Shown: positions 5,973 through 23,234 of the stretch, piece after piece
Numbering within the stretch: the first letter of the stretch is position 1
Layout: every line of letters starts with the position of its first letter
Assembly (NCBI GenBank): GCA_031364845.1
Contig: JANLWX010000026.1
Location: forward strand, 1 to 23,234
Origin: Candidatus Eiseniibacteriota bacterium
GTDB taxonomy: Bacteria; Eisenbacteria; RBG-16-71-46
Direction: 5' to 3'
Length of the DNA stretch: 23,234 bases
Position numbers and translations under genes: made by a program
The notes under the pieces: model-generated
Told to the model about the DNA's origin: nothing
Databases searched by the model: none
What the model saw: the letters and a program-made list of their open reading frames with translations, nothing else

Positions 5973-6632
5973 CTAGGCGCGCCGCAGGCCGATGCTACGC
6001 AGGAACGCCATCCACCGCGGGTCCGCGTGCAGCGGATCGAGTTGAGGGGTGACCGGCGCGACCGAGAGCCCCGCATCATGTAACTCGAATGAGCGCTCGA
6101 GCCAGCGGAACGCATCGTCGTGCTCGCCCCTCACCGCATGGACGGTCGCGATCTGGCATCCCCAGTTCTCGCCCAGGGCAATCAATTCCTGCAGCGAGCG
6201 GTCCGATGCCTTCTTGTCGCCCTGCAAGTGCTGGAACGCACTCTCGCAGTAGAGCCGGTAGCCGTTCCTCATTTCGTTGCGCGTCGCCGCGGCGGCCTCT
6301 GCGGTCTTGCCCTGGTAGTGGAGCGCCCAGGCCAGTTGCGTCCAGCCGCTCGCAATGTCCGGACTCAGTTCCAGCGCGCGCCGATAGTGGTATTCAGCTT
6401 CGGCGTGGAGGCGTGCCCAGGACAGCACGCGCCCGCGGTTCATGATGGTCGCTGCGGAGATTGGATCGAGCGAGCGCGCGCGTTCACTCAGCGAGAGCGC
6501 CGCGCGCATATCGCCCAGGACGGCTTCGAAGTGGCTGAGCATCATGAGGATTCTGCCGTTGCCGGGCGCGAGAGCGCTGGCCTTGCGGATGGCTTCGTGT
6601 ACTCCAGGCCAGCGGAACTCGATCGGACCGAG
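5973..6632 (-). pseudogene. 5'-truncated duplicate of the TPR C-terminus of the kinase at 7968-10241 (could be translated as a 190-aa TPR protein from ATG 6545)
   Basis: Gap-free alignment to the kinase tail, 143/190 aa identical by hand count. Homology continues 29 codons upstream of the first ATG (LGPIEFRWPGVHEAIRKASALAPGNGRIL vs LGPVEFRWAEAHEAIRRASDLAPGNGSIL) and then ends. Confidence 0.8.
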
Positions 6633-7967: not shown

Positions 7968-10241
7968 CTACCCCGGTCGCCGCAGCCCGATGCGATGCAG
8001 GAATGGCACCCAGCGCGGGTCCGCGTGCAGCGGCGCGAGCTGCGCGTTGACCGTCGTGAGCGAGAGTCCGGAATCGTGCAACTCGAACGAGCGCTCGAGC
8101 CAGTGGAACGCCTCGTCGTGTTCGCCCCGCACCGCATGGACGCACGCGATCTGGAATCCCCAGTTCTCGCCCAGGGCAATCAGTTCCTGCAGCGAACGGT
8201 CCGATGCGCCCGCGTCGCCCTGCAGGTGCCGGAACGAGCTCTCCCACCAGAGTCGGTAGCCGCTGCGCTTTTCGTTGCGCGCCGCCGCCTCGGCCTCTGC
8301 GGTCCTGCCCTGGTACAGGAGCGTCCAGGCCAGCTGCGACCAGCCGCTCTCGATGTCCGGGCTCAGTTCCAGCGCGCGCCGGTAGTGCACTTCGGCTTCA
8401 GGATTGCGGCGAGCCCAGTGCAGCACCCGGCCGCGGTTCATGATGATGTTCGCGGAGAGTGGATCGAGCGCGAGTGCACGTTCGCTCAGAGTGAGCCCCT
8501 CGCGGATGTTTCCGAGCACGGCTTCGAAGTGGCCGAGCATCATGAGGATGCTGCCGTTGCCGGGCGCGAGATCGCTGGCCCTGCGAATGGCTTCGTGAGC
8601 TTCCGCCCAGCGGAACTCTACTGGCCCGAGCGCCATGGCCATGGTCTCCCACGCTTGGGCGAGATTCGGGTCGAGCGCCACCGCGCGATCGACCGCCTCC
8701 CTGGCAAGCCGGTAGGTCTCGGGCTTGCCGGCCTCCTCTCCCCGGTAGTACTGCGTCAGCCGGGAGTAGGCGAGCCCCGCCCACGCACGGGCATCGCTCG
8801 GCACCATGGCGATCGCTTGATCGTAGAGCGCAATCGCGCGCTCGATCGAGGCGTCACTCTGCTGCTGCGCGAAGTGATGCGCGTGCAGCAGCAATTCGAA
8901 CGTCTCGGCGTTCTGCGGCGCGGGCGCGGCTGGCTGCGTGCCGAGCAAGGTCACGTTCATCGCCAGCGACACACACTTCGCGATCTCGTCCTGCACAGCG
9001 AAGATGTCGTCGAGCACGCGATCGAACGTTTCGCTCCACAGGTGGAAACCGTCCGAAACCTTCACGAGCTGCACGGTGATGCGCACGCGATTGCCGGCCT
9101 TGCGCACGCTGCCCTCGAGCAGCGTCGCCACTCCCAGCTTCTGGCCGATCTCGCGCAGGTCCTCGTGCTTGCCCTTGAATGCGAAGCTCGACGTGCGGCC
9201 GACCACGCGGAGTCCCGGGTTGCGGGCGAGCACGTTGAGCAGTTCTTCGCTGAGGCCGTCGGAGAAGAACTCGTTCTCGGGATCCGCACTCATGTTGGCG
9301 AACGGCAGCACCGCGAGCGATGGCGCCACGGCGGTGGCCCCCGTGCCGCTTGCGGCGGATGCCACGCCGGATTCGAATTCGCGCCGCACCGCGTCGAGTT
9401 CGGTGCGCAGGTCGGCCGCGGTGGCAAAGCGGCGCTCGCGCTCCTTTTCGAGACAGCGGCCCACGATGCGGTCGAGCGAGGGCGGCAGCTCGGGCCGGAT
9501 CGATTTCATCGTGGCCGGCAGGTCGCGCAGGATGGACGAACTGACGTCGGCGGTTGAACGGCCGGTGAACGGGCGGCTCCCGGTGAGCATCTCGTACATC
9601 ACGACGCCGAACGCGAACAGGTCGGCGCGCGCATCGAGCTTTTCGCCGCGGATCTGTTCGGGCGCCATGTAGGGCGCGGTGCCGACCACCTGGCCCAAAG
9701 CCGAGATCGGCGCCGGCGCCGTGAGCGCCTGCGTGTGCGTGCTCGGATCCGACGAGTTGCCGTCGTCGAGCTTGGCGAGCCCGAAGTCGAGCACCTTGAG
9801 CCGGCCCTCGCGCGAGATCATCACGTTGGCGGGTTTCAGGTCGCGGTGGACGATTCCGCGCTCGTGCGCGGCCACCAGCGCGTCGGCCAGCGCAAGCGCC
9901 CACTTGAGCGTGGGCAACGGCGGCAGCCCGGCCGGCGAGATGCGCTGGTCCAGGCTGTCGCCCTCGACCAGTTCCATGGTCAGGAAGCGCACGCCGTCCG
10001 CTGCTTCGATTGAGTGGATCGTCACGATGTTCGGGTGGTTGAGCACCGCTACCGTGCGCGCCTCGCGTTCGAAGCGCGCCAGCCGCTCGGGGTCGGCCGC
10101 CACGGATTCGGGAAGCACCTTGAGCGCTACGTCACGCCCCAGCCGGGTGTCGCGCGCTCGATAGACCTCGCCCATCCCCCCCGCGCCGAGCGGCGCGATG
10201 ACTTCATAGGGACCGAGGATGGACCCAACTGTCAGTGGCAT
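7968..10241 (-). CDS. Cytoplasmic Ser/Thr protein kinase with TolB-like N-terminal-type middle domain and TPR repeats
   Basis: LGAGGMGEVY, VALK, HRDLKPAN, DFG and GTAPYMAPE, then SLAVLPFANMSADPENEFFSDGLSEELLNVL...EGSVRKAGNRVRITVQL and TPRs. No transmembrane segment seen. Confidence 0.95.
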   Translation of the reverse strand: MPLTVGSILGPYEVIAPLGAGGMGEVYRARDTRLGRDVALKVLPESVAADPERLARFEREARTVAVLNHPNIVTIHSIEAADGVRFLTMELVEGDSLDQRISPAGLPPLPTLKWALALADALVAAHERGIVHRDLKPANVMISREGRLKVLDFGLAKLDDGNSSDPSTHTQALTAPAPISALGQVVGTAPYMAPEQIRGEKLDARADLFAFGVVMYEMLTGSRPFTGRSTADVSSSILRDLPATMKSIRPELPPSLDRIVGRCLEKERERRFATAADLRTELDAVRREFESGVASAASGTGATAVAPSLAVLPFANMSADPENEFFSDGLSEELLNVLARNPGLRVVGRTSSFAFKGKHEDLREIGQKLGVATLLEGSVRKAGNRVRITVQLVKVSDGFHLWSETFDRVLDDIFAVQDEIAKCVSLAMNVTLLGTQPAAPAPQNAETFELLLHAHHFAQQQSDASIERAIALYDQAIAMVPSDARAWAGLAYSRLTQYYRGEEAGKPETYRLAREAVDRAVALDPNLAQAWETMAMALGPVEFRWAEAHEAIRRASDLAPGNGSILMMLGHFEAVLGNIREGLTLSERALALDPLSANIIMNRGRVLHWARRNPEAEVHYRRALELSPDIESGWSQLAWTLLYQGRTAEAEAAARNEKRSGYRLWWESSFRHLQGDAGASDRSLQELIALGENWGFQIACVHAVRGEHDEAFHWLERSFELHDSGLSLTTVNAQLAPLHADPRWVPFLHRIGLRRPG

Positions 10242-10309: not shown

Positions 10310-12970
10310 TCACTTCTTCGCGATGTCCGCCATCCAGTTGAGCACCACCGTGGTGGTGGGAAGTGCGCGCTCCGCCAGGGGGCGGAACAGGATGAACGTG
10401 CTCCCGTCATGGGTCACCGCGTAGTGACTGCGCTGCTGGCCGGGCGAGAGGATCTTGGTCTGGAACAGCACGACCGGGGTGCCGGGCCCGAAAGAGGGTG
10501 ACAGCGTGATCGGCGTGGACATCATCTGCTGCTCCGGCGACAGATAGAAGAGTTCGCGTCCGCCATTGCCCCAGTGCGGGTCGTCACCGCCGCGGACCGA
10601 GATCTGCCACTTGTCGCTGCGGTCCGGGTAGGTCTGAACGTAGACCTCTTCGCGACCCGACTCGTCGGACACGTAGGCGAGATAGCGGCCATCGGGCGAC
10701 AACCGCCCCGAGAACTCGTTGAACGCCCCGTTGAGGAACGGTTTCACCTTGTGGTCGCCCGCAACCGAGAGCGTGCCGATATCCGATCCCATCGCGCCGA
10801 ACACGTCCAAGAAGATCGTCGCGCCATCAGCCGACCAGTCCTTGATCGTAACCTCGTCGGCCAGGGGCGCGAGCAACTCCGTCTCGCCGGACCCGGTGAG
10901 CTGCTTGGCGACGACTCCCGAAGCGCCGGGCGCATCCGACCAGTAGGCGATGCGCCTTCCGTCCGGCGACCACATCGGATAGTTCTCGTTGGTGGGTTCG
11001 AACGAGAAGCGCGTCGAAATCCCGCGCTCACGATCGAGGATCCACACATTGCGGCTGCGCGTCTGCGGATCCATCGCGCGTACCGCGATGCGCCGGTCGT
11101 CGGGCGAAAGCGTGGGCATCAGCGCCGAGGGTGGGCACTCGAGTGGCCGGACCAGCCGGCCGGAGCGATCGAGTTCAACCAGCTCACCGGCCTGAGCCCC
11201 ACGCGTGGAGTAGACGAGCACGCCGTTCTCCGAAGCGCGGAAGTCGGAGCCGCCCACGACGCTGGTGCCCACCTGCTCGGCGATCGGCACCGGCTCGCCC
11301 TTGAACTTGAGAGCGCGCGTATCGAACGGCTGGAGCACCAGCGAGCCGCCCCGCGAATAGAGCAGATGGCCGGGTGCGACGTATTGCACCTGGGACTCGC
11401 ATGGGCCGAGCGCGCGGGTCTCCTTCGAGCCGAGCGTGCCCACGCGCAACTCCGGAGTCGGCAGGATGCTGAGATAGAGGAAGTGCTTGCCGTCGGGCAA
11501 AAACTCCGGCCAGCCCACCTGCTGAACACCCTTTGAGGTGTCCGGCTTCACTTCGGCCGTCGCGACGCCACCGCTGGCCGGCACGCGCATGAGGGGATCG
11601 ACGCCAGTGCCGTCGAACAGGATGACCCCACCCCTGCCCCACGTGCCGTCCGCTCCAGTCGGCGCGTCGCAGATCACCGATGGCGGCCCCCCCGCGATGT
11701 TCACCTTCTTGAGCTTGCCTCCGGAGACGAAGGCGAGATAGCGGCTGTCCGGCGACCAGAACGGCCGCCTGGCACCGTCGGTGCCCGGCAGCGCCTGTGC
11801 GACGAGCGCGCTCAGCGGCCGGATCCAGACGCGCACCGTGCCGGTGGAGTCGGTCGCGCTGTAGGCAAGCGTGCGGCCGTCGGGCGAGATGCGAGGGGAG
11901 TCCTGTGTCTGAACCGAACTCGGCGTCGTCACCTCGAAGCGCATGGGCTGCGGCGCGGGTGGGCGAAGCACAAACGTCATCACCGCGAGCGCGATCGCGG
12001 CCGCAGACGCGACGCCACCGAAGATCCACGCCATGCGCTCGCGGCTGCGGCGCCGCGCGGACACCGGCGCGGGCCCGCCCGCCTGCGAGCCGCCCTCGAC
12101 GATCCAGCGCAGGTGCATGCGCACTTCGCGCGCGGTCTGGATGCGCTCTTCGGGATCCTTCTCGAGGCACGCGCGCACCAGGCGGTCGAGGCCGGGCGGC
12201 GAAAGCTGCAGCACTTCGCTGATCGGTGCGGGCTGATCCTTCATGATCGAACTGATGAGGCTCGCCTGCGTGGCCCCTGCGAACGGGCGCTTGCCGGTCG
12301 CCATCTCGTACAGCACGCAGCCGAGCGCCCACAGGTCGCAGCGCGCGTCGGCTTCGGCGCCCTCCAACTGCTCGGGGGCCATGTACTGGAACGTGCCGAC
12401 GATCGCACCCTTGGCGGTGAGCGGCTGCGCCACCGTCGGCGCCACCGTCAAGCCCGAAAGGCTGGCGAGACTGCCGGAGCCGCCGCCCGCAACCTCGGTG
12501 GCCCGCGCGAGACCGAAGTCCATCAGCTTGGCGCCGGTCTTGGACAACATGATGTTGCCGGGCTTCAAGTCGCGATGAATGATGCCGGCGCGATGCGCCT
12601 TTTCGAGCGCGTCGGTGATCTCGCCGCCCAGCTTGAGGACCTGCTCGATCGGCAGCGGCCCGTTGGCGAGCCGCTCGCCGAGCGTCTCCCCTTCGACCAG
12701 CTCCATCACGAGGTAGTCCGTTTCGCCCTCGCGCCCGATGTCGTGCAGCGTACAGATGTGCGGGTGGTTCAGGCTCGACACCGTGCGCGCTTCCTGCTCG
12801 AAGCGCGCGCGCACTTCGGCGTTCTCAGTCAGATGGCCGGGCAGCACCTTGATGGCCACGTCGCGGCCGAGCCGCGTGTCGCGGGCTCGATACACCTCGC
12901 CCATGCCACCGGCGCCGAGCGGAGAGACGATTTCGTAGGGTCCGAGCTTGGTGCCGGCAGTCAGGGTCAT
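10310..12970 (-). CDS. Membrane Ser/Thr protein kinase with extracytoplasmic PD40/TolB-like beta-propeller
   Basis: LGAGGMGEVY, VAIK, HRDLKPGN, DFG and GTFQYMAPE; TM segment MAWIFGGVASAAAIALAVMTFVL; repeated ISPDG/WSPDS/LSPDD/WSPDG/LSPDG. Start is 12970 or 12976. Confidence 0.95.
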   Translation of the reverse strand: MTLTAGTKLGPYEIVSPLGAGGMGEVYRARDTRLGRDVAIKVLPGHLTENAEVRARFEQEARTVSSLNHPHICTLHDIGREGETDYLVMELVEGETLGERLANGPLPIEQVLKLGGEITDALEKAHRAGIIHRDLKPGNIMLSKTGAKLMDFGLARATEVAGGGSGSLASLSGLTVAPTVAQPLTAKGAIVGTFQYMAPEQLEGAEADARCDLWALGCVLYEMATGKRPFAGATQASLISSIMKDQPAPISEVLQLSPPGLDRLVRACLEKDPEERIQTAREVRMHLRWIVEGGSQAGGPAPVSARRRSRERMAWIFGGVASAAAIALAVMTFVLRPPAPQPMRFEVTTPSSVQTQDSPRISPDGRTLAYSATDSTGTVRVWIRPLSALVAQALPGTDGARRPFWSPDSRYLAFVSGGKLKKVNIAGGPPSVICDAPTGADGTWGRGGVILFDGTGVDPLMRVPASGGVATAEVKPDTSKGVQQVGWPEFLPDGKHFLYLSILPTPELRVGTLGSKETRALGPCESQVQYVAPGHLLYSRGGSLVLQPFDTRALKFKGEPVPIAEQVGTSVVGGSDFRASENGVLVYSTRGAQAGELVELDRSGRLVRPLECPPSALMPTLSPDDRRIAVRAMDPQTRSRNVWILDRERGISTRFSFEPTNENYPMWSPDGRRIAYWSDAPGASGVVAKQLTGSGETELLAPLADEVTIKDWSADGATIFLDVFGAMGSDIGTLSVAGDHKVKPFLNGAFNEFSGRLSPDGRYLAYVSDESGREEVYVQTYPDRSDKWQISVRGGDDPHWGNGGRELFYLSPEQQMMSTPITLSPSFGPGTPVVLFQTKILSPGQQRSHYAVTHDGSTFILFRPLAERALPTTTVVLNWMADIAKK

Positions 12971-13137
12971 GACCATACCGGCTGGATCACGGCTTCGAAG
13001 CGGGGATGCATGCGGATCGTCTCCCAGAAGGGTGTGATGCGTTGCAAGTGTGTTGGAAGTGCGGGGCTCCGCCCCGGATCAAGACCTTATTCAACTCGTT
13101 GCGCGTGAAGAATGCGAGCCAGCCCCGTTGCGCGCGG

Positions 13138-15165
13138 TCAGACCCGGCGCACCACCAGCAGCGTGACGTCGTCGACGTGCATGCCCTCGCCCGCCACCGC
13201 GTGGACATCGGCGAGCATCCGCTCCACGATCTCGGCAGAATCCGGATGCTCCGCCGCGAGCGCGAGCGCGCGCTCGCGCAGCCGCTCGTCTCCATAGAAT
13301 TCCTTCGGCTGCGCTCGTTGTGGCGCCTCGGGGATTCCATCGGAGTAGATCACGAGCGTGTCGCCGACAACGAACTTCACGTCCTTGCCGGCGTAGGGCA
13401 TGTCCTCCAAGATGGCGAGCGGCACGCCGGTCGCGTCCAGCTCGATGACCGCGCCGTTGCGCAACAGGAGCGGCGGATTGTGACCCGCGTTGCAGTAGCT
13501 CAGCCGCTGTTCCTCGACCGAGATGATGCCGAGGAAGAACGTCGCGAACTTGCCGGGGAGCGCGGCGCGCGCGAGTGAGCTGTTGACGGCCTCGACCATC
13601 TCCACCGGTGTGCGACCGGGCTGTGCCACCGCATGGAACGACGCCCGGATGTGCGCCATCAGCAGAGCGGCCGGGACGCCGTGTCCGCTGACGTCGCCCA
13701 CGACCACCGCAAGCGATCCGTCCTTGAACGGGATCCAGTCGAAGTAGTCCCCGCCCACCAACTGGGCGGGGATGTTGCGGCCCGAGACATCGAGTCCGGC
13801 CACATTGGGAGGCCCGGCCGGCAGCAGGTGCTGCTGGATCGAGCGCGCGACTTCGAGTTCCCTGGCCTGCGCGCGGGCGCGCTCCTCGGCCTCGCGGCGC
13901 CACGCGTTCTGCACCGCGGCCCATGTGATCGGTGGCACCAGCAGCGCTGCCAGCGGGGGAACGTCGAGGTCCGCGAAGACGAACAGGCTGTAGTCGATCG
14001 CCGCCACACAGACGATCGCTCCGAGCGCGACGAGGGCGGCGCTCAGGAGCGAGACCCGCGAGTACCAGAGGCCGAGGCCGGTTGCGAGCGCGATCAATGC
14101 CAGGATCATCCACGGAGATCGTTCCGGGACTTTCCTCACGAACCGTCCCTGGAGCGCGGCGTTCACGGCATTCGCGTGGACATAAACGAGCGGCGTGAGG
14201 CTCGAGTACGGAGTGACACCGAGGTCGAACGCATTCGGACCGGTCGTCGTGGATCCGATCAGCACCAGCTTTCCGCGGAATGCCCGGGCGAGCGACGTCG
14301 TGTCGGCGTCCCGATACCACTGCAACACCTGGAGCATGGAGTGACGGTTCTTGAATGCACGCTCGTCGCCCGCGAAGGCGATCGTGGTCCCGCCTTCTTC
14401 GTCTGAAGGCACCTGCGCGCGGCGTCCCCTCCACTGGACTTCAAGTCGGTCCGAGGCCAGTTCGAAGCGCGGCAGAGTGCTGTCGCGGCGAGCGGCCACC
14501 TCGACCAGGCGGATCACGAGCGAGCCGTAGGCCGCCTTGCCGAATCGGATGAAGTGCGGGATGCGGCGGATTACGCCATCGGCGTCGACGAGCACCGCCG
14601 TGTGTCCGACGTCGTGGGTGGCGGAGAGCAGGTCACCGAACGGCAGCGCGACGGCCTGTGCGATTGCCAGGCGCTTGCCCGAAGTCGGACGGCCGTGACG
14701 GATGAGTTCCGAGGAATCGGCGATCGCCGCCATCGAGCTGGACATCGACCTCTCACCGCGCTGGAAGGAAATCGCCTGGACCAGGTTGTCCTGGGCCCCG
14801 GTGATGGATGCCAGCAACTGGTCGCCGGCCGGATCCTGGGGGTCTTCCCCGAGGAAGACGAGGTCGAATACGAACGCCAGCGCGCCGGCGTTCTCGAGCG
14901 CGTCGATCACGATGGCGTAGTTGCGACGTGGGAGCGGCCACACGCCACCGATTGCCGTGATCGTCTGATCGTCGATCTCAATGATGGCGACGCGGTCCGA
15001 GGCCGCAACCGGACCACGCAGATGATAGCGCCAGTCCTGAAGCAACAGATCCACAGGGCGCGTCACGCCGATCGCCCAGACGACCGCCGCGAGCAAGCCG
15101 CAGACGGCACCAATCCTGGCGCCCTTGCCAGCGGAGACGCGCTCGATCGCGCTCGATCCGCTCAC
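13138..15165 (-). CDS. CHASE2 sensor domain + 3 TM + PP2C/SpoIIE-type Ser/Thr phosphatase
   Basis: CHASE2 motifs VAIIEIDDQT, WPLPRRNYA, FDLVF, DADGVIRR, FRGKLVLIG and VHANAVNAAL. PP2C motifs VGGDYFD, VGDVSGHGVPAALLMA, YCNAGHNPP, YSDGIPEA and DDVTLLVV are intact. Confidence 0.93.
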   Translation of the reverse strand: MSGSSAIERVSAGKGARIGAVCGLLAAVVWAIGVTRPVDLLLQDWRYHLRGPVAASDRVAIIEIDDQTITAIGGVWPLPRRNYAIVIDALENAGALAFVFDLVFLGEDPQDPAGDQLLASITGAQDNLVQAISFQRGERSMSSSMAAIADSSELIRHGRPTSGKRLAIAQAVALPFGDLLSATHDVGHTAVLVDADGVIRRIPHFIRFGKAAYGSLVIRLVEVAARRDSTLPRFELASDRLEVQWRGRRAQVPSDEEGGTTIAFAGDERAFKNRHSMLQVLQWYRDADTTSLARAFRGKLVLIGSTTTGPNAFDLGVTPYSSLTPLVYVHANAVNAALQGRFVRKVPERSPWMILALIALATGLGLWYSRVSLLSAALVALGAIVCVAAIDYSLFVFADLDVPPLAALLVPPITWAAVQNAWRREAEERARAQARELEVARSIQQHLLPAGPPNVAGLDVSGRNIPAQLVGGDYFDWIPFKDGSLAVVVGDVSGHGVPAALLMAHIRASFHAVAQPGRTPVEMVEAVNSSLARAALPGKFATFFLGIISVEEQRLSYCNAGHNPPLLLRNGAVIELDATGVPLAILEDMPYAGKDVKFVVGDTLVIYSDGIPEAPQRAQPKEFYGDERLRERALALAAEHPDSAEIVERMLADVHAVAGEGMHVDDVTLLVVRRV

Positions 15166-15189
15166 GTGACGATGTTGAGAATCAGCGAC

Positions 15190-15837
15190 TCAGCGCTTCC
15201 AGTAAAGGAGCTGCGGAGTCTCGCTGCCGTCGGAAGCGCGCGGGCCTGCCGACCGCCACGCCGACGGGGCCTTGCCCGTGGACGTCTTGACGCCGGAACC
15301 CGCGGACTCGACCTTCCCGGTTGGAACCGCGCTCGCCGCCTGCTTCAGCATTGCACGGATCTGTTCGGGGTCGATCGCGGTCTTCTTGGAAGCGCGCTCG
15401 GTCGGCTCCTTCGGAACGGCCGGCTCCTTCGGGATGCCCATCAGCGCCGCCGCCGCCTCGGGTCCGCCGGCCAGCTTCACCCCGCGGGCGAAGGCCGCTT
15501 CCGAGCGCGCCTGGTTGCCCAGCAGCATGAGCGCGGTCGCGTGGTTCAGGTGAATTCCCGCATCGAGCGAGTCGCCGCGCAGCGCGCGCTCGTAGAACGC
15601 GAGCGCCACACTCGTCTCACCTCTCAGGAGGCGGATATTGCCGAGGTTGTTCAGCGCGCGCGCATCGCCCTTGGTGTGGGACAGCATCGTGATGAAGAGC
15701 GATTCCGCGCGGGCTTCCTCGCCGCTGATCGCGAGGGTCACGCCATATTCCGAACGGGCATCGGTCGCGTGCAGCGGCGCGGTGACCACCGTGACCAGAA
15801 GTGCCGTCACGGCCAAGAACAGCAGGTTGCGTCGCAT
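15190..15837 (-). CDS. Secreted TPR protein
   Basis: Signal peptide MRRNLLFLAVTALLVTVVTAPLHA; TPR ALNNLGNIRLLRGETSVALAFYERAL; GAAGGG RBS; starts 11 nt after the upstream stop. Confidence 0.85.
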   Translation of the reverse strand: MRRNLLFLAVTALLVTVVTAPLHATDARSEYGVTLAISGEEARAESLFITMLSHTKGDARALNNLGNIRLLRGETSVALAFYERALRGDSLDAGIHLNHATALMLLGNQARSEAAFARGVKLAGGPEAAAALMGIPKEPAVPKEPTERASKKTAIDPEQIRAMLKQAASAVPTGKVESAGSGVKTSTGKAPSAWRSAGPRASDGSETPQLLYWKR

Positions 15838-15848
15838 GGCGGTTCCCT

Positions 15849-18377
15849 TCACTCGATCCAGTACAGGTACCTGGACAGTTCACTCGGTGGCACGTTCGAG
15901 AGTATCGGCGTGGATGACGGCGGACCGGAGACTTTGCCTTGCTCCTTGCCCGCCAATTCACTCTGCTGAAGGACACTACGGATTCCGTTTCGCAGGGTCA
16001 ACAATTCATCTGAAAAGTCGTCCGCGCGATCGTGGGTGCCGTCAGGATCGAGGCCGACAAGCCTGCACGCCGCGGCATACCCACCGGCCTCCGCGACGGC
16101 GGGACCGAGCAGCGACATGGCAGAGGCGCCGTCACCGCGCGCCCAGCGCACGATTCCGCGGTTCAACGCGATCCCCGGGTCCCGCCGGCCCAGCGCCAAT
16201 GCGGCCTGCCAGTGTTCGTCGGCAATCGCTGCGCTGTCCATCCCGGCGAGCACGTCGCCGAGGTTGTTGTGCGCGCTCGCCGATTGCGGCGCCTTGGCAA
16301 GCGCTCCCCTGAGCCGGGAGCCTGCGCCTTCGAGGTTCCCGCCTTCGAACTCGATCCGTGCAACTTCCTCCAGCGCACCGGCGGTCGCCTCGAGCTCGCG
16401 CGCGCCGGCGCCAAAGCGGGCCGCGAAGTACTGCTCGCGGATCGCCGAGACTTCCTTCGCCTCGGCCTCGAGCCGCGCGCTGAAGCGCTCTTCGACGAGA
16501 CTGCGCACATTGCGCTCGCCGGGCGGTGTGGCGGGTTCGAAGTTCACCTGAGCCTGGGTGACATCGAAGTAGTGGACTTTGTTCGTCGCGGTTCCGGCCG
16601 CGATCGCGTCGGCGCCGTCACGCCACGCTTTGACGAACCCCTGGGCCAGCGACGTCGTCTCGAGCGGAATCCATACCCGCTCGTTGTCGATCACCATGAG
16701 TGTGCTGTCGACGCCGAGGGCGGCGCGGTTGCGCTCGTTGAGGCCCGTGTCGGCCAACAGGAGGATGTGGCCAGGAACATCCACGAACTGCGTGTTCACG
16801 CCGAGGTTCCCGAGCATCGACGCCATCAGCACGGTGGTGTCGTCGCAGTCACCGCTCAGCCGGTCGAGCGTCTGGTAGGGATAGTGGATCGTGTCCACTG
16901 CGTGCGGAGTCGCGGAGATGGTGGAGAAGGGATTGGTGGGGTCGGGAACGTATGCGACTCCCAGTTCCGCGAGGGCATCGGTGACCGCGGCGGCGAACGC
17001 CATGTTGCGAATGCCGAACGGGTTCTTGTCGAGCGCGAGCGCGAGCCGGCCGGCCTGGCGCGCGAGCGCGTCGACCGCGGGGTCTCGCGGGGTGACGAAG
17101 GCCGCCGCCTGCGTCATGCCCTCGCCCCAGTTGATCGCTCCGGGCCCGTAGGCGAATGTTCGCGCCGTTCCCTTCTCGCGGCGCACGAGCCGCTTGCTCT
17201 GATAGCTTGCGCTCACTTGCACCTGAACCGGACGGTCACCGCGCTGGCCGAGGACGGTCTCGTCCAGCACGGCCGTGAGCGGCATCTCGTTCACCGCTCC
17301 CGGACGCAGCGTCACCTCCTGCTCGCTGGGCGCGGTCATCAACTCCGGGATGAAGACGGAGACCCGCGTCGTCAGCGGCCTATCCTGTAAGTTTCGCAGC
17401 TGGACCTTGCCGAACGCGTCGCGCGCGTACGACTTGTAGAGCGACGTGTAGATCTCGTCGGCCTGCACCTTCTCGATCCGCACCTGGGCGGGGTTGAAGT
17501 TGAACTCCAGCGCGAAGGAGAAGTGATCGGTGGGGTCGAGTGTCGGTGGAACGCTGCGCGCCCAGTCGATACGCGCCAATCCCACCTTTAAGCCGAGACC
17601 CATCGACCAGGCGATGTCTTCACGTCCCTCCCGGTCACGCTCGGCGCCACCGCGGAGCGCGAGCAACGCGTGCGGCGTCACTTCGAGTCCGAGGTGCCAT
17701 CGGTCGTCGACGTCGAACGCCGCGGTGGCCAGTCCGGGCCGGGTGTATGCCGTCGCGAGGCGGAGGTTGCGCGAATAGGCGTTGTCGCCTTTCCCCTCGG
17801 AGGAGCGCACGTCGGTGCCGGTGACGTCCTGCCCGACGAGGCCGATCCGCCAGTGATCGGTGGGCGAAACGAGCAGGCCGGCGTCGAACCCAATGCCGCG
17901 GCCCGAGACGATGCTGAGGCCGTCGAGCCGGGTGCCGCGCGTCAGCAGTTTCGCGCCCGTGCCTGCCCAGAGCCACGGCCGCACCTTGAACGCCATGCCC
18001 ACGGTCGCGCGGTTCTCAGAGAAGCCGAGTTCATCGTCCTCGAAGCCCGAGTGATACCAGTCGGCGGCCATCGCGAAGCCGGGCGAGAGCGGCAGGACAA
18101 AGGCCGCGAGATCTTCGCGGATCCCCACTCCGAACAGGTTCGCGTGCGACGCCGTCAACTCCTGGTTTCCGACTCCCACGAGGCCGGCGGGATTCCAGAA
18201 CAAGGCACTTGCGTCGTCGGCGATCGCGCTGAACGCGCCGCCCATGGCGATCGCGCGCGGACCCACCGGCACCTGGTTGCTCGGCGTGCGCGCCAGCGCC
18301 TCACACGCCGGCGTGAAGGTCGCGCAAGCGGCCAGCAGCGCCGCGAGCCGAAGCCACCGCGCGTTCCAAGAGGTCAT
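15849..18377 (-). CDS. PorV/PorQ-like outer-membrane barrel fused to a transglutaminase-like cysteine domain and C-terminal TPR (842 aa)
   Basis: ATG 18377 overlaps the upstream stop (ATGA). Signal peptide; VGPRAIAMGGAFSAIADDASALFWNPAGL; beta-strands ending HFSFALEFNF; then YPYQTLDRLSGDCDDTTVLMASML...PGH...WIPLETT; TPR AHNNLGDVL. Confidence 0.85.
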   Translation of the reverse strand: MTSWNARWLRLAALLAACATFTPACEALARTPSNQVPVGPRAIAMGGAFSAIADDASALFWNPAGLVGVGNQELTASHANLFGVGIREDLAAFVLPLSPGFAMAADWYHSGFEDDELGFSENRATVGMAFKVRPWLWAGTGAKLLTRGTRLDGLSIVSGRGIGFDAGLLVSPTDHWRIGLVGQDVTGTDVRSSEGKGDNAYSRNLRLATAYTRPGLATAAFDVDDRWHLGLEVTPHALLALRGGAERDREGREDIAWSMGLGLKVGLARIDWARSVPPTLDPTDHFSFALEFNFNPAQVRIEKVQADEIYTSLYKSYARDAFGKVQLRNLQDRPLTTRVSVFIPELMTAPSEQEVTLRPGAVNEMPLTAVLDETVLGQRGDRPVQVQVSASYQSKRLVRREKGTARTFAYGPGAINWGEGMTQAAAFVTPRDPAVDALARQAGRLALALDKNPFGIRNMAFAAAVTDALAELGVAYVPDPTNPFSTISATPHAVDTIHYPYQTLDRLSGDCDDTTVLMASMLGNLGVNTQFVDVPGHILLLADTGLNERNRAALGVDSTLMVIDNERVWIPLETTSLAQGFVKAWRDGADAIAAGTATNKVHYFDVTQAQVNFEPATPPGERNVRSLVEERFSARLEAEAKEVSAIREQYFAARFGAGARELEATAGALEEVARIEFEGGNLEGAGSRLRGALAKAPQSASAHNNLGDVLAGMDSAAIADEHWQAALALGRRDPGIALNRGIVRWARGDGASAMSLLGPAVAEAGGYAAACRLVGLDPDGTHDRADDFSDELLTLRNGIRSVLQQSELAGKEQGKVSGPPSSTPILSNVPPSELSRYLYWIE

Positions 18378-21300
18378 CGCACCACCGCCAGCGCGCGCGT
18401 TTGCTTCTCTCCCAGCGCTTCGACGGTCACGAGGTACATTCCCGATCCGGCATCCTCCCGATCCTCCGTCTGACCGTCCCAGCTCACCACGTTGGTTCCG
18501 GGACCGAGCGACTGACCCGAGGTCACCACGCGCACCAGGCGGCCCGCGCGGTTGTGGATCGTCACCCTCACGTCGCCCGCGCGCGCCATCGTGAACGCGA
18601 TCCGAATGGGCGTGTTCGCGAACCCCGCGCGGGACGAAAGGACGCGCGGCGTGAGCGAGAGCTCGAGCGACGCGCCGGAACTCGGCGGGCTCAGCGAGGC
18701 GGCAAAGAGCGCGAACGATCCCGGCGCGGAGAACGAGATCGTGATCCGCGCACCGGTCGGGTCGAGGGTGCCGCCCACCCGGCGCCACGTACCGTCGGAT
18801 CCGGATGCGTAGAGCGCGAGGCGTGTGCCGGCAGGGGCCACGGCGCCGTCGACGGTGAGTTCGAGAACGGCGTCCTTCTCCATGGGGACGCCGCCGGTGC
18901 CGATGGCGAACCCCGGCGCCAACCGGGTGGCTCCATCGGGCAGCGTTGTGGGAACGGCCAGCTCGTCGAGTTGTTCGATCGTAACCGTCGCGTCGCGCTG
19001 CAGCGCGCGCGGGGGGATATAGACGTGGGCTTCGCGGTGGGTGGTGAATACGTCGCCGCCGCTCAGCGCCGAAATCAGCGCCGGAGAAGTTTGCGCGGCG
19101 ACCGGCGCCTCGTTGTCGACGACGAACGTGACCCGCGCGACCCCGGTGAGCCCCAGCGTGTCCTGCACCGCGAGGCGCAGCTCGTAGTCGCCATCCGGCA
19201 GAGTCCTGGTCGGGAAACTCGCGAGCGATCCGTCGGCGACGGGTGTGGTCGACCGTGAGAGCGGCGTCGCTTCGGGCGGATCCCACGAGGTCGCTCCGGC
19301 GGGCCGCAGGTCGACTCGGAACGATCGGAATCGCAGGGCTTCCGCCGTTCCCCTCACGATCAGCGTGTCGCGCACCGGCTGGCGGAACACCGGCGAAGTG
19401 ATGACCGGAGCCGGCGGTGTGGCGGCGATTTCGAACGTCGAGGACGCGGGCGTGGGATCGACGTGCTGCAAACGGTCGCGCGCGACGACGCGCAGCGTGT
19501 GCACACCGTCCCCGAGGTCGCGTCCGATCCAGGTGTCCTCGGTGCTCCACGGCGACCAGGGCGCCGAGTCCAGTGAGGTCGAGAATTCGATCCCGATCAC
19601 CTGGCGGTACGCGGCGAGGAATTGCACGGTCTGTAGCGTGTTCGCGGAAAGCAAGGGCGGTGCGCTCGAGATCACCGTCTGAGGTGGCACGCGCGCGGGC
19701 TCGTGGAGGACGGCTCCCGAAGCGGTTCCGAACCACAGACTGCCCGAGCGTTCGCACCACGCGGCGCTCACCGTTCCATCGGGCAGGCCATCCTGGGTCG
19801 TGTGGGTCAGCCACACGTGGGCACCGTCGAACCGGCTCACGCCGCTGCCGGCGGTGCCGATCCAGAGCACGCTGTCGGGCGTCTCGGCGATGCAGAGCAC
19901 CCAGTCGGCCGCAAGCCCGTTCTCGGTCCGGTAGGTCCGCCAGGTGGAGCCGTCGAAGCGGCTGAGCCCGCTCGTCGTGCCGAACCACATCACATTCGAA
20001 TGATCCTGGAACACCGCGTAGACATTGACCCCGGCGAGGCCGTCGGCCGTCGAGTAGCGCGTCCAGGCGCCGCCGTCGAGAACCGCGACTCCGCCGGTGG
20101 TGCCGCACCACACCCGCCCCGCGCGATCCACCCACAGCGATCGCACTCGATTCGCGGGAAGTCCGTTGCCGGTGTTGTAGGAGATCCAGGTCGCGCCGTC
20201 GTATCGACTGAGGCCCGATGTCGTGCCCAGCCACACGGCCCCGCTCGAATCGCGCGCAAGGGCGGTGACGTTGTTTCCGGCGAGGCCCTCGGACGACGTG
20301 AACGTGCGCCAGGCGTTTCCGTCGAAGCGCGATGCTCCGGCGTTGGTCGCGAACCACAGCGCGCCGTCCGCTTCCTCGAGCACGGCGTTGACCACATCGC
20401 TCGCGAGTCCCCCGCCGGTGGACTTGGTGGTGACGCTCGACCACGTCGCGCGGTCGTAGCGCGCCACGCCGGCGCCGGAGGTCGCCGCCCAGACGTTGCC
20501 GGCGCGATCCTCGATCACGGCCTGGGCTCCATACGTGCCGAGTCCGGCGTCGAGGTGCGGAGTCCAGCTCTCGCCGTCGTAGCGGCTCACCCCGTTGTCG
20601 GTCGCGATCCATCGATTCCCGGCGCGATCGATGATGAGTGAAGCGACTCGGTTTCCGGCGAGACCGTCCGCGGTGGTGTAGGCGCGCCAGGTCCGGCCGT
20701 CGTAGCGCGCCACGCCCGAGGTCGATCCGACCCACAGGATCCCCGATGCGTCTTCGGCCAGGGCCATCCCATCGACGAACGTCAACGATCCGGCAGTGGT
20801 GTGGCGGGTCCATGTCGTCCCGTCGAAGCGGGACAGCCCGCCCGCCCGGGTTCCGATCCACATCGCGCCATCTCGGGTCTGGAGGATGCTCTCGATCCAG
20901 TCGGCGGCGAGCCCCGATGAGGTGTTGACGGTCGTGTAGGTGGTCCAGGTCGCGCCGTCGAAACGGCTGACGCCTCCACCCTGCGTTCCGAACCAGAGGT
21001 TGCCGGCGCGGTCCTCGTGGATACACGTGAGCTGGTTTGCGGCGAGGCCGTCGGACTGCTGGAAGGTCGTCCAGGTCGTGCCGTCATAGCGGCTGACGCC
21101 GAAATCACCGGTCGCGAACCACAAGCGGCCGGCGCGATCCTCGAGCATGGCGCGCACGTCGCTCGAGACGAGGCCGTCGCTCACGCCGAATGACGTCCAC
21201 GTGCCGCGATCGTAGCGGCTCACGCCCTGGGCGGTGGCGAACCAGATGCGCCCGGTACGATCCGGCAGCACCGCCCGCACGTCGTCGCTCGCAAGGCCAT

Positions 21301-21598
21301 CGGCCTGGCCGAAGCTGCGGAAGAACGCTCCGTCGTAGCGGGTGACGCCGCGCTCGGAGGCGAACCACAGGTTCTCGTCGAGGTCCTGGGCGATCGCCGT
21401 CACGCGCAGCGCCGATAGACCGTCGATCAGGCCGAAGGTTTGCCAGTCGCACCACGCGGGCCGCGCGCCGAGCAGAGCGAGGAGGCACGCGCCGAGCGAA
21501 ACGACGCGTGCCGTGATCGAACGAAAGGGGCGCCCGGAGTGTAACGCGAGGCTCACGCCGCTCGGCGTGTGGCGCGTCGTGGTCCGGCCGTTGTTCAA
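18374..21598 (-). CDS. Secreted protein: 14 two-component-regulator propeller repeats, Y_Y_Y-like/Ig domains, C-terminal FlgD Ig-like (T9SS-CTD-like) domain
   Basis: Signal-like VVSLGACLLALLGARPAWC; GLxxxxVxxxxxDxxGxxWxGTxxGxSRxDG repeats; LGDGVHTLRVVARD; C-terminus VRVTIHNRAGRLVR...VSWDGQTE...GSGMYLVTV...ALAVVR. Start is uncertain (TTG 21598 with GAAGGG, or GTG 21556). Confidence 0.88.
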   Translation of the reverse strand: MNNGRTTTRHTPSGVSLALHSGRPFRSITARVVSLGACLLALLGARPAWCDWQTFGLIDGLSALRVTAIAQDLDENLWFASERGVTRYDGAFFRSFGQADGLASDDVRAVLPDRTGRIWFATAQGVSRYDRGTWTSFGVSDGLVSSDVRAMLEDRAGRLWFATGDFGVSRYDGTTWTTFQQSDGLAANQLTCIHEDRAGNLWFGTQGGGVSRFDGATWTTYTTVNTSSGLAADWIESILQTRDGAMWIGTRAGGLSRFDGTTWTRHTTAGSLTFVDGMALAEDASGILWVGSTSGVARYDGRTWRAYTTADGLAGNRVASLIIDRAGNRWIATDNGVSRYDGESWTPHLDAGLGTYGAQAVIEDRAGNVWAATSGAGVARYDRATWSSVTTKSTGGGLASDVVNAVLEEADGALWFATNAGASRFDGNAWRTFTSSEGLAGNNVTALARDSSGAVWLGTTSGLSRYDGATWISYNTGNGLPANRVRSLWVDRAGRVWCGTTGGVAVLDGGAWTRYSTADGLAGVNVYAVFQDHSNVMWFGTTSGLSRFDGSTWRTYRTENGLAADWVLCIAETPDSVLWIGTAGSGVSRFDGAHVWLTHTTQDGLPDGTVSAAWCERSGSLWFGTASGAVLHEPARVPPQTVISSAPPLLSANTLQTVQFLAAYRQVIGIEFSTSLDSAPWSPWSTEDTWIGRDLGDGVHTLRVVARDRLQHVDPTPASSTFEIAATPPAPVITSPVFRQPVRDTLIVRGTAEALRFRSFRVDLRPAGATSWDPPEATPLSRSTTPVADGSLASFPTRTLPDGDYELRLAVQDTLGLTGVARVTFVVDNEAPVAAQTSPALISALSGGDVFTTHREAHVYIPPRALQRDATVTIEQLDELAVPTTLPDGATRLAPGFAIGTGGVPMEKDAVLELTVDGAVAPAGTRLALYASGSDGTWRRVGGTLDPTGARITISFSAPGSFALFAASLSPPSSGASLELSLTPRVLSSRAGFANTPIRIAFTMARAGDVRVTIHNRAGRLVRVVTSGQSLGPGTNVVSWDGQTEDREDAGSGMYLVTVEALGEKQTRALAVVR
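19700..21425 (-). repeat. 14 degenerate intragenic coding repeats (Reg_prop blades, about 40-45 aa each)
   Basis: Counted in the translation from GLSALRVTAIAQD to GLPDGTVSAAWCERSGSLWFGT; boundaries approximate. Confidence 0.85.
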
Positions 21599-21623
21599 GT
21601 GACCCTTCGTACTGCGGCTCGCT

Positions 21624-23234
21624 TCAATCCACCAGCCTCGACGAGAAGATCTCCGTGGATCCGCCGACCGACGAGAACCAGACGATGACCGGAGTTCCGG
21701 TTCCATCGAGAATGATCTTCGCGCCGCGTGGTTCCCCGACCGTAGGCGAGGTGGCGCTCGTGACATCGACTGCCGGACCCCAGGTCGCGCCGCCATCTGC
21801 GGAGCGGGTGTAGTAGAGCGCGGTGCCGCACTCGCCGACCAGCGCGTGGATCTCGCCGCCGGGACTGACCGCGAAGCTCTTCGGGCAGAGCGAGCCGCGG
21901 GCGGCGGGTTCGGGAAGGTGACTGACCAGGTCGAAGGTCAGACCGTCGTTGGTCGATCTGAGGAACGCAACGCCGCCCGCTTCGTCGAGCCCCATCACGT
22001 AGAGGGTGCCGTCGGAGCCGATCTGCGCGTCACCGAGAGATGAGAGCTTCAACGTGCTCGTCAGCGGGTTCGACTCGTCGCGCACGCGGCGCGCCGGGCC
22101 GAACGTCGCGCCGGCGTCGGTGGAGCGGCGGTAGAGCACGCGATGGATCCCAGGACTGCCGGGCTCGTCGTACTGCCAGAACACGAAGACATGATCCCCG
22201 CTCGAGGCACAGATGCGCGCCATCGAGTTCTGGTCGGTTCCCCCGTTGGGCGCGATCGCGTAGGGCGCGCTGAAATCATCGCCTCCGGTGAGCGACCGCG
22301 AGTAGTAGATGCCCGCATCCGTCCGCTCCCAGGCCGCGTGGAAGTGCTCGCCGCTTCCGACCGTCAGGGCCGGGTAGCGCGTCGGGTTCCCGTCCACGGG
22401 CGTGATCAGAGGATCCATCTGGAATCCGCCGTCGGTCGACTGTCTGAAGAAGAGCTGTTCGACGCCCGCGCTGAGCATGCCGATCTTGTTCGAGGGCGTG
22501 ACCGCCAGCGCCGGCTGCGCGCTCTGCTGCGAGTTCGGGACGGCAACGGACCAGTTCTGCGTGTTGTCGAGCGAGAGGGAGTGCACCGACTCGTAGTGGA
22601 TGCGCCACCAGGCCATGAACAACTCGCCGTTGGTGCCGCGCACGATGTCCGGGTCACGGGATTGCGTCGCGGACTTGGAAACGTCGAGCGGCACGCTGAA
22701 CGTCGGAACCGGCCCGTAATCGAGAATGTCGTCATCGCTTCGAGGGAAGATCGCGAACGTTCCGCCGACCCGCCCCAGAACCCCGGTGACGGTCACGATC
22801 TCGCCGGCTGCGGCGCCGAAGGCGAAGTTCTCTGCCGCATTGGCGATCAGGATTTGATTCTGAGGTCCAGAGTTTGTCCGTGGGAGATTCGGGCTCGATT
22901 CTCCGACGTCGGTGCCGGGAATCTCGACGAAGAAGTTTTCACCCGGCGGCGCGTCATCGACGACGGCCACGCGGTCGACGGTCACCAGCATGCCCTCGTA
23001 GTCGTCCCCGGTGAGGAACCGCTGTCGATCATCGCACGTGTCGTCGGTCAGGATGCGGATCGACTGGAGCGCCGGCACGAACGACGGACCCGGCCCGAGG
23101 TCCCGGACGTAGACCAGGCCAGTCGCCCGCGTCTGGCCCGCAATGTCCCTCAAGGTTCCGGACAGCACATATGTGTGGCCGACGCTCAGACCGATTTCTG
23201 ACGGGCTCACCCACAAGCCTGCTCGCGGGTTCGA
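21624..23234 (-). CDS. Extracellular-type protein with OB-fold-like module and C-terminal BNR/Asp-box (sialidase-like) propeller; 5' partial
   Basis: Frame is open to the window edge. YEGMLVTV...GEIVTVTGVL...FAIFPRSDDDI resembles OB modules of extracellular nuclease-type proteins. Asp-boxes: STDGGFQM, SLTGGDDF, STDAGATF, STNDGLTF, SADGGATW. Confidence 0.8.
   Translation of the reverse strand, partial: SNPRAGLWVSPSEIGLSVGHTYVLSGTLRDIAGQTRATGLVYVRDLGPGPSFVPALQSIRILTDDTCDDRQRFLTGDDYEGMLVTVDRVAVVDDAPPGENFFVEIPGTDVGESSPNLPRTNSGPQNQILIANAAENFAFGAAAGEIVTVTGVLGRVGGTFAIFPRSDDDILDYGPVPTFSVPLDVSKSATQSRDPDIVRGTNGELFMAWWRIHYESVHSLSLDNTQNWSVAVPNSQQSAQPALAVTPSNKIGMLSAGVEQLFFRQSTDGGFQMDPLITPVDGNPTRYPALTVGSGEHFHAAWERTDAGIYYSRSLTGGDDFSAPYAIAPNGGTDQNSMARICASSGDHVFVFWQYDEPGSPGIHRVLYRRSTDAGATFGPARRVRDESNPLTSTLKLSSLGDAQIGSDGTLYVMGLDEAGGVAFLRSTNDGLTFDLVSHLPEPAARGSLCPKSFAVSPGGEIHALVGECGTALYYTRSADGGATWGPAVDVTSATSPTVGEPRGAKIILDGTGTPVIVWFSSVGGSTEIFSSRLVD

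Follow-up and report, generated by a model that had tools for sequence, protein, structure and literature searches.

Known systems and the studied locus

The signal sensed by the CHASE2 domain was declared unknown in 2016 (PMC5192318), and NsrA-CyaK of Sinorhizobium meliloti (CyaK/CyaD1/CyaD2), one genetically defined CHASE2 route, is described without a transfer mechanism in the excerpts consulted (PMC7529298, PMC13001267). Here we report a cassette of four genes, g1 to g4, from a Candidatus Eiseniibacteriota bacterium, which encodes a predicted type IX secretion cargo, a predicted outer-membrane barrel with a transglutaminase-like (TG) arm, a signal-peptide TPR protein and a predicted CHASE2 phosphatase. 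The cassette lies in a window of 23,234 nucleotides (nt), which is one entire contig (JANLWX010000026.1 of assembly GCA_031364845.1; contig C45 of genome G000), and the host genome has 4.6 Mb with 66% GC. The cassette is a conserved module, predicted to span the envelope, and probably a variant of outer-membrane-to-CHASE2 signalling, and no description of this combination was found in the main texts of the open-access literature searched. This agrees with the original prediction, made from the letters of the window alone, which had recognised no described system.

NsrA-CyaK resembles the cassette in layout and is a precedent for signalling from an outer-membrane barrel to CHASE2, and it supports the relay model proposed below. 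As in NsrA-CyaK, an outer-membrane barrel is genetically linked to a CHASE2 enzyme, in 28 of 30 loci of the cassette. Unlike NsrA-CyaK, the cassette has a 14-strand PorV/FadL-type barrel with a TG arm, a cargo with a C-terminal domain (CTD) and a motif-bearing TPR partner, and the output of the barrel-type cassette is a PP2C phosphatase or a kinase and not a cyclase. Other CHASE2 clusters, such as the Campylobacterota cyclase, the Burkholderia LysM-FecR/CHASE2 kinase and mtxA, also have exported partners (PMC9239204, PMC5192318, PMC4439547), which include FecR, TPR, DUF928 or MtxA proteins (PMC9239204, PMC5192318, PMC5587647, PMC4439547). In the excerpts consulted they are described without type IX cargo or a TG-like enzyme, and FecR is absent from the cassette.

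The LapG/LapD/LapA system has a periplasmic TG-like cysteine protease, an inner-membrane receptor and a surface protein (PMC3032545, PMC4359373), as predicted for the cassette; LapG cleaves at small residues and is held by a Trp anchor, two features with proposed counterparts in the cassette. However, LapG is a free enzyme with a Cys-His-Asp triad and works in inside-out c-di-GMP signalling on a type I adhesin, whereas in the cassette the enzyme is part of a barrel protein and carries Cys-His-Glu, and its receptor would be a CHASE2 protein with a catalytic output.

Cargo-shuttle pairs of type IX secretion (PorZ-PorQ, PG1035-PorP-PorE, and type B CTD with SprF-like shuttles) have the CTD cargo gene directly upstream of the barrel gene, as in the cassette, and also a surface-bound cargo and a periplasmic TPR-type partner which binds under the barrel (PMC9143113, PMC12618676, PMC10947112). 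Unlike the cassette, their barrels are described in these excerpts without a fused enzyme or a linked CHASE2 sensor. Moreover, g1 and g2 score below the cut-offs for PorZ, PorQ, PorV and type B, and no PorP/SprF, OmpA, PorE family or peptidoglycan-binding domain was found in g2 or g3 with Pfam and NCBIfam.

Gene content of the cassette

Five same-strand genes (g0 to g4) with successive gaps of 25, -4 (ATGA overlap), 11 and 24 nt, as listed in the original prediction, were reproduced exactly on the minus strand. The last four make up the cassette, with the following features:

18374..21598, minus strand, g1: TTG start, 1074 amino acids (aa); Reg_prop and FlgD_ig above cut-off (Pfam)
18377..18661, minus strand, CTD of g1: separate subfamily PR-x-x-S...NRAG...WDG...VVR with traits between type A and type B
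15849..18377, minus strand, g2: 842 aa; signal peptide, PorV/FadL-like barrel, Ig, TG domain, TPR and tail
17493..18284, minus strand, g2 residues ~32-295: predicted 14-stranded outer-membrane barrel with N-terminal plug and aromatic last strand
16539..17492, minus strand, g2 Ig (296-410) and TG catalytic domain (414-613): predicted to be periplasmic from the barrel topology
16659..16847, minus strand, g2 Cys511, His537 and Glu573: predicted catalytic residues from the homologue alignment
15852..16382, minus strand, g2 TPR repeats, helix, linker and C-terminal LYW tail: from the AlphaFold2 (AF2) model and homologues
15190..15837, minus strand, g3: TPR protein (Pfam) of 215 aa with signal peptide, paralogous to the C-terminal arm of g2
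15193..15258, minus strand, motif tail of g3: W-R-S-A-G-x-R-A...L-Y-W-K, from the alignment of g3 proteins
13138..15165, minus strand, g4: 675 aa; CHASE2 (23-362) and SpoIIE/PP2C (482-674), both above the Pfam cut-off

Conservation of the four-gene unit

We surveyed 172 genomes of the phylum, each at least 80% complete. Twenty-nine of them had the TG domain, 46 had CHASE2 and 30 had the middle region of g1. CHASE2 was found in 28 of the 29 TG-positive genomes versus 18 of the 143 TG-negative ones; g1 was also found in 28 of the 29, and 28 of the 30 genomes with the g1 middle region were TG-positive. The original prediction expected CHASE2 and CTD-bearing genes to keep company with the barrel gene, and these counts bear it out. 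TG and CHASE2 lay on the same contig within about 3 kb in 24 TG-positive genomes. The other five comprised three contig-end breaks, genome G136, whose TG gene is on a 1.9-kb contig and which gave no CHASE2 match, and the single-contig genome G103, where g1-g1-g2 and g3-g4 are 1.9 Mb apart. Genome G014 has g1 on a different contig.

Gene order was compared in 34 barrel-type loci, 30 of them with at least 2.5 kb of downstream DNA and 30 with at least 1.5 kb upstream. Downstream, g3 and CHASE2 followed in 28 of 30 (22 with PP2C, 5 with kinase, 1 cut). The two loci without them (L050, L055) are extra g1-g2 copies in a genome that also has the full cassette (L042). On the upstream side, a CTD gene directly preceded the barrel gene in 24 of 30 and a g1-like gene was present in 26; for the four loci without g1, three genomes have g1 elsewhere. 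Several genomes have two or three propeller paralogues per barrel. The distribution of the unit is patchy, and it is absent from the same-genus genome G001.

Thus g1-g4 are a conserved four-gene unit. They very probably act in one pathway, which is favoured by co-occurrence, gene order, retention of both halves when split (G103, G014), fusions and a shared motif. The competing idea, that the cluster is merely co-inherited and the cargo-barrel pair and CHASE2 are functionally unlinked, could appeal to the extra g1-g2 copies and to distant TG genes with no adjacent CHASE2, but it is very improbable and largely refuted by co-occurrence: TG-CHASE2 pairing recurs across unrelated architectures and phyla, separated halves are both retained, and both exceptions are in the genome with the full cassette L042.

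In four loci of family f3 (L027, L028, L029, L030) the cassette is immediately preceded by a gene pair for a histidine kinase and an OmpR-type regulator. One second g1-g2 copy (L033/L055, G012:C8:1-14000) is frameshifted and lies beside a Tn3 transposase fragment.

The barrel protein and its transglutaminase-like arm

The AF2 model of g2 (74 sequences) had a mean predicted local distance difference test score (pLDDT) of 91 and a predicted template modelling score (pTM) of 0.67. It runs in the order plug, 14 strands (72-292), Ig (299-410), alpha/beta domain (414-613) and TPR helices (666-773), after which come an extra helix, a linker of low confidence and the LYW tail, which is ordered at 831-842 (block pLDDT 92 and 88). 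The top structural match of the barrel was 6h3i chain F, from a structure of the type IX translocon (Z 30.3, root mean square deviation 2.5, 259 aligned), a chain which we take to be PorV, and the FadL homologue 3dwo tied with it (Z 29.9). We thus predict a 14-stranded PorV/FadL-like barrel with an N-terminal plug. The PorV likeness claimed in the original prediction holds for strand number and fold but not for family assignment, as the barrel scored 53 bits against PorV_fam NF033709 (NCBIfam cut-off 90), 15.6 against PorQ (cut-off 220) and 56.7 against PorVQ2 (cut-off 325). An even number of barrel strands should place the C-terminal arm on the periplasmic side. Residues 295-842 had 217 homologues at 90% clustering.

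The middle domain of this arm is a transglutaminase-like fold. The Ig-TG region was modelled with pLDDT 93.5 and pTM 0.90. No Pfam match was obtained for the TG domain in full-length g2; with the isolated domain, 61 of the 74 aligned members matched Transglut_core at E<=0.05 (best 3.8e-6), and an Atlas neighbour was Transglut_core at 0.93. Foldseek on the TG region returned weak matches to TG2, TgpA, 3isr and PNGase amid many Ig-only matches. The predicted Cys-His-Glu triad (511/537/573) was present in 120 of 120 protein homologues and in 80 of 81 locus sequences; the exception is a gene with a frameshift. For the locus set the search pattern contained the Cys motif, which leaves His and Glu as the independent residues there.

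Searches of the PDB gave TPR proteins only, among the 60 of 241 matches listed, with the full g2 alignment, and no match with a 17-sequence TG alignment. The TG profile gave two matches, of which the top one was LapG (4u65_E, E 0.98) with the Cys motif aligned; 4u65_E comes from a LapG complex (PMC4359373). From the sequence comparison, the arm appears more likely to be a LapG-like cysteine protease than a cross-linking transglutaminase, so that the transglutaminase domain of the original prediction is retained as a fold and probably not as an activity. Three points speak against this assignment: the LapG match is non-significant, the third triad residue is Glu where BTLCP/LapG has Asp, and LapG was not among the Foldseek rows, which listed other TG-fold proteins weakly.

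The predicted cargo and type IX homologues in the host genome

The g1 protein has a hydrophobic, signal-peptide-like N-terminus and matched Reg_prop with 174.5 bits and FlgD_ig with 36.4 bits (Pfam). Its 13 repeat matches have a spacing of 41-45 aa with one gap, and g1 likely has about 14 Reg_prop blades, forming two 7-bladed propellers, followed by an Ig-rich middle region and the CTD. A resemblance of the middle region to ZU5 had no Pfam or PDB support and was discarded. With PorZ (NCBIfam), g1 gave 73.5 bits against a cut-off of 260. Among the NCBIfam matches in the window, one to anti-phage ProA (24.2 versus 1500 bits) was set aside as domain-level similarity.

The CTD of g1 scored 21.8 bits with the type A model TIGR04183 (cut-off 23), which 3 of 21 homologous CTDs exceeded; none of the 21 exceeded the cut-off of the type B model TIGR04131 (best 26.1 versus 35). 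On its own subfamily profile, which was built with the g1 sequence included, it scored 127.5 versus at most 58.1 for the other 166 CTD-like open reading frames (ORFs) of the genome. We regard g1 as a predicted type IX secretion cargo.

The genome encodes type IX translocon and sortase homologues with scores of 564 bits for SprA (cut-off 200) and 479 bits for PorU (cut-off 420), and a PorV-like gene lies immediately after PorU:

G000:C67:20948-25276 and C186:28033-39864, SprA and PorU homologues, above cut-offs

The original prediction had proposed a check for these genes, and the translocon side was found, but not the motor. GldM and GldN were unmatched, though no control genome gave a GldM or GldN match either; GldK reached 33.9 bits, under the cut-off of 350, and GldL was not searched for. 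Eisenbacteria may possibly have a motor-less type IX system. In total the genome has 167 CTD-like and 11 barrel-like ORFs. Two further PorV-like barrels of G000 (C98:3430-6567 and C73:7589-10108) are extended at length on the C-terminal side, and a CTD gene immediately precedes each of them, so that fusions of a barrel to a periplasmic arm occur more than once in this genome.

The TPR partner and its motif

The original prediction treated g3 as a generic adaptor. Instead, g3 is paralogous to the C-terminal arm of g2, with 30% identity across 159 aa (E 3e-6), and both lineages hold a G-x-R-[AG]...YW motif which tracks the TG domain. All 29 aligned g3 proteins share, without exception, the Arg, Tyr and Trp of the tail, which stands behind a variable linker. 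A YW-type tail is present in 114 of 120 g2 homologues; many homologues also retain the G-x-R part, which is degenerate in the g2 of this genome.

The motif is also met in distant TG proteins. An R/K-[AGS]...W tail was found in 38 of 50 of them (that of L101 is a chance match of the regular expression) versus 100 of 3183 control ORFs. For 7 of the 12 tail-less proteins, a small signal-peptide protein with TTAVGGVRG...YWK or a close variant is encoded downstream. This small motif protein has 154 homologues. It was searched alone in metagenomes, with 80 of 99 loci kept: every one of the 39 loci that had 1.5 kb or more of DNA on the upstream side had a TG gene there, and 14 of the 15 that had 6.5 kb or more had a CHASE2 cyclase. 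The motif is thus provided in cis or in trans wherever the TG enzyme occurs, with few exceptions (the TG fusions L069, L071 and L072), which argues for binding of the motif to the enzyme arm.

When the profiles of g3 and of the small proteobacterial protein were compared, the match was non-significant (probability 2%); the two have the linear motif in common and no detectable domain homology, and a circular permutation between them is hypothetical. The regular expression alone matches 12 of 21,901 stop-to-stop ORFs of the genome, so it is informative only together with position and conservation. We also rejected the idea that every CHASE2 partner has the strict G-x-R-[GA]...YW motif: among 19 other loci of the phylum, only the g3-type L117 and L119 have it, and the other partners have at most a loose K/R-G.

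The arm in other architectures and phyla

Outside Eisenbacteria the Ig-TG-TPR arm is joined to Reg_prop-YYY in Latescibacterota and Gemmatimonadota and to NHL-fn3 in Proteobacteria. Single-chain Reg_prop-YYY-TG-TPR proteins were found in L066 and L069-L072, and NHL-fn3-TG-TPR proteins adjoining a CHASE2 cyclase in L080-L082, L086 and L101. These barrel-free versions have propeller and TG in one chain, and the propeller is mostly without a lipobox. In spirochaetes the arm is fused to a domain resembling a small outer-membrane barrel, and the TG gene often precedes a gene for a lipoprotein that has Ig, beta-helix or FG-GAP domains. Nine of ten such spirochaete or Latescibacterota genomes have CHASE2 elsewhere, a frequency without a baseline. 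The TG-CHASE2 link is therefore strong in two architectures and not universal.

Eight spirochaete loci (L074, L084, L090, L094, L103, L107, L112, L115) have the predicted order small barrel, Ig, TG, TPR and tail, and a gene for a lipoprotein with diverse extracellular domains comes next. In L088:5394-9509 a papain-family C1 peptidase and a lectin-like domain are fused before the small barrel and TG arm, in a genome without a CHASE2 match. L102:5382-10498 encodes a TG-TPR protein with an unannotated N-terminus and a full motif tail, directly before a CHASE2 cyclase and with no separate small partner.

The CHASE2 sensor and its outputs

From its domains and two hydrophobic segments (15-42 and 368-400), g4 is predicted to be an inner-membrane CHASE2 sensor with PP2C phosphatase output; its SpoIIE domain scored 164.7 bits (Pfam) and has the four metal-binding Asp motifs. 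It is the single CHASE2 match of the genome. Among the barrel-type cassettes the output was PP2C in 22 loci and Ser/Thr kinase in 5, and a cyclase was found in the barrel-free versions and L102. The swapping of the output domain that the original prediction asked about does occur. Its relay to Ser/Thr phosphorylation agrees with the PP2C and kinase outputs but is too narrow, since this is one of three interchangeable outputs.

Nineteen further CHASE2 loci of the phylum included four with SH3 protein and M48 peptidase, three with FecR, three with CHAT-TPR and two with g3-type partners; the remaining ones were contig-limited or had unannotated neighbours. The recurrence of proteases beside CHASE2 genes is suggestive. 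A plasmid search gave seven distant CHASE2 records.

In four of these loci (L118, L120, L122, L126) three genes form a unit; they encode an SH3 protein, in which an LAGKGF stretch is conserved, an M48 peptidase and a CHASE2 cyclase. Exported, unannotated proteins of 290-340 aa are encoded directly upstream of the CHASE2 genes in L128, L129, L131, L132 and L134, and a CHAT-TPR gene lies near the CHASE2 locus in L129 and L131.

Proposed relay and alternative explanations

Our best model, to which we give about an even chance, is that surface sensing is passed to CHASE2 by periplasmic proteolysis of a motif loop. We infer every physical step of it. The type IX translocon of the genome would export g1, whose CTD would keep it on its own barrel g2 at the surface. 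Ligand binding by the propeller may then alter the barrel or plug and activate the Ig-TG-TPR arm on the periplasmic side. The TG domain would bind the G-x-R-[AG]...YW loop of g3 (and the own tail of g2) and may cut it, in the fashion of LapG, at small residues close to the invariant Arg. In g4, the CHASE2 domain could read the unmasked peptide end or a released fragment and switch the phosphatase, or the kinase or cyclase in relatives. LapG cleaves between alanines and leaves AGPSAAG (PMC3032545), and S-AGPRAS of g3 resembles this product end, which is resemblance only. The most specific form of the proposal, that CHASE2 of this class is a receptor for a protease-unmasked peptide, produced when a cargo-activated, barrel-fused Cys-His-Glu protease cuts a G-x-R bait loop, is tentative and rather unlikely to hold in full.

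Several observations weigh against the relay. The surveyed genomes are related, so the counts above are not independent. The fusions L069, L071 and L072 have no motif tail. The tail is retained in TG proteins of spirochaetes and Latescibacterota although the flanking DNA retrieved has no CHASE2, and one of the ten genomes is without any CHASE2 match. The unmatched GldM and GldN and the sub-threshold GldK also count here, within the limits given above. Surface display is not required, because propeller and TG form one chain in the barrel-free versions. The motif follows TG better than CHASE2, and the FecR, SH3 and CHAT-associated partners encoded beside other CHASE2 genes do not have its strict form, so a universal CHASE2 ligand is unsupported. 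In addition, the model requires a signal to pass a plugged 14-strand barrel.

A trans-envelope relay may also work without proteolysis of the motif. In this case the tail would be a docking or pseudo-substrate peptide with a Trp anchor, joining g2, g3 and CHASE2, and the signal would pass by conformational change or transamidation. The ordered g2 tail in the AF2 model fits such docking, as do the Tyr-Trp pair, invariant to the same degree as Arg, the degenerate G-x-R of g2 in this genome, and LapG itself, which is held by the Trp anchor of its receptor (PMC4359373). We consider it unlikely, however: the catalytic Cys, His and Glu are invariant across at least five phyla, and the Arg stands in a small-residue stretch behind a variable, low-confidence linker, as in a bait loop.

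The direction of signalling could be the opposite one, with CHASE2 gating the protease in a Lap-like, inside-out manner, the protease releasing or remodelling g1 (adhesin shedding), and the enzyme output being secondary. The likeness to LapG and the spirochaete small-barrel TG proteins, with a lipoprotein gene following and no CHASE2 nearby, would suit this. It is nevertheless improbable, for the domains on the cytoplasmic side are output enzymes whose motifs are intact and which swap between PP2C, kinase and cyclase, unlike a ligand-binding input; a CTD-held cargo offers no periplasmic segment for cutting; and the barrel-free three-gene unit is without a separate surface cargo.

We give a low and slightly smaller probability to an envelope or secretion monitor, in which no surface ligand is involved and either unsecreted g1 or its CTD acts in the periplasm or damage is sensed. 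Such a role is known for the PorA CTD, which activates PorY in the periplasm (PMC12152298); the barrel-free propeller, mostly lacking a lipobox, is probably periplasmic, and the unmatched motor genes, with the limits given above, point the same way. Against it, in 24 of 30 loci the gene of a dedicated barrel comes right after that of the cargo, which is the layout of cognate cargo-shuttle pairs (PMC12618676), and two or three propeller paralogues per barrel in several genomes are as in a receptor repertoire.

Neighbouring genes in the window

Upstream of the cassette lies g0:

21624..23234, minus strand, g0: weak BNR_2 match below cut-off, without CTD; 5' end lost at the contig end

The original prediction had counted g0 in an operon with one component per envelope layer. 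The four downstream genes do co-occur, but g0 is a co-oriented neighbour outside the conserved unit, because the contig end truncates it, it lacks a CTD, and a homologue was found in only 1 of 20 related loci (L018). A scan for promoters and terminators gave 1 versus 1.0 and 7 versus 7.3 in shuffles, which is the shuffle level and uninformative on co-transcription.

After g4, with a gap of 161 nt, two tandem Ser/Thr kinase genes follow on the minus strand: a kinase-PD40 propeller (10310-12976) and a kinase-TolB_N-like-TPR protein (7968-10241). Both belong to a large paralogous family (32 tblastn matches each), and they could be local counterparts of the PP2C. A kinase gene as a core member was rejected, since it lies directly downstream only here and in G027 among 20 loci. 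At 5973-6632 (minus strand), 1.3 kb downstream of the kinase-TPR gene and past an aldo-keto reductase gene, there is a 76% identical copy of its C-terminal 218 aa, which resembles a truncated duplicate.

Implications for CHASE2 and type IX biology

New here are the finding that the TPR gene is a paralogue of the barrel tail, and that the motif follows TG across phyla, either fused or as a small protein. Depending on the phylum, the same catalytic arm is joined to a PorV-like barrel, to a predicted small barrel (in spirochaetes) or to a propeller, and this suggests a portable transducer. The cassette supplies candidates for the enzyme and for a substrate motif of about 20 residues, together with a predicted receptor; all of them are soluble and can be expressed, which makes the CHASE2 question testable. 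If the peptide-receptor proposal is true, a type IX cargo-shuttle pair would have been converted to an outside-in receptor, and the M48 peptidase with SH3 protein, CHAT, and FecR, which undergoes self-cleavage, beside other CHASE2 genes would be interchangeable makers of the same kind of ligand. The relay, if true, would mean that cargo-shuttle pairs of type IX secretion can take part in signalling, and type IX biology would then include Eisenbacteria.

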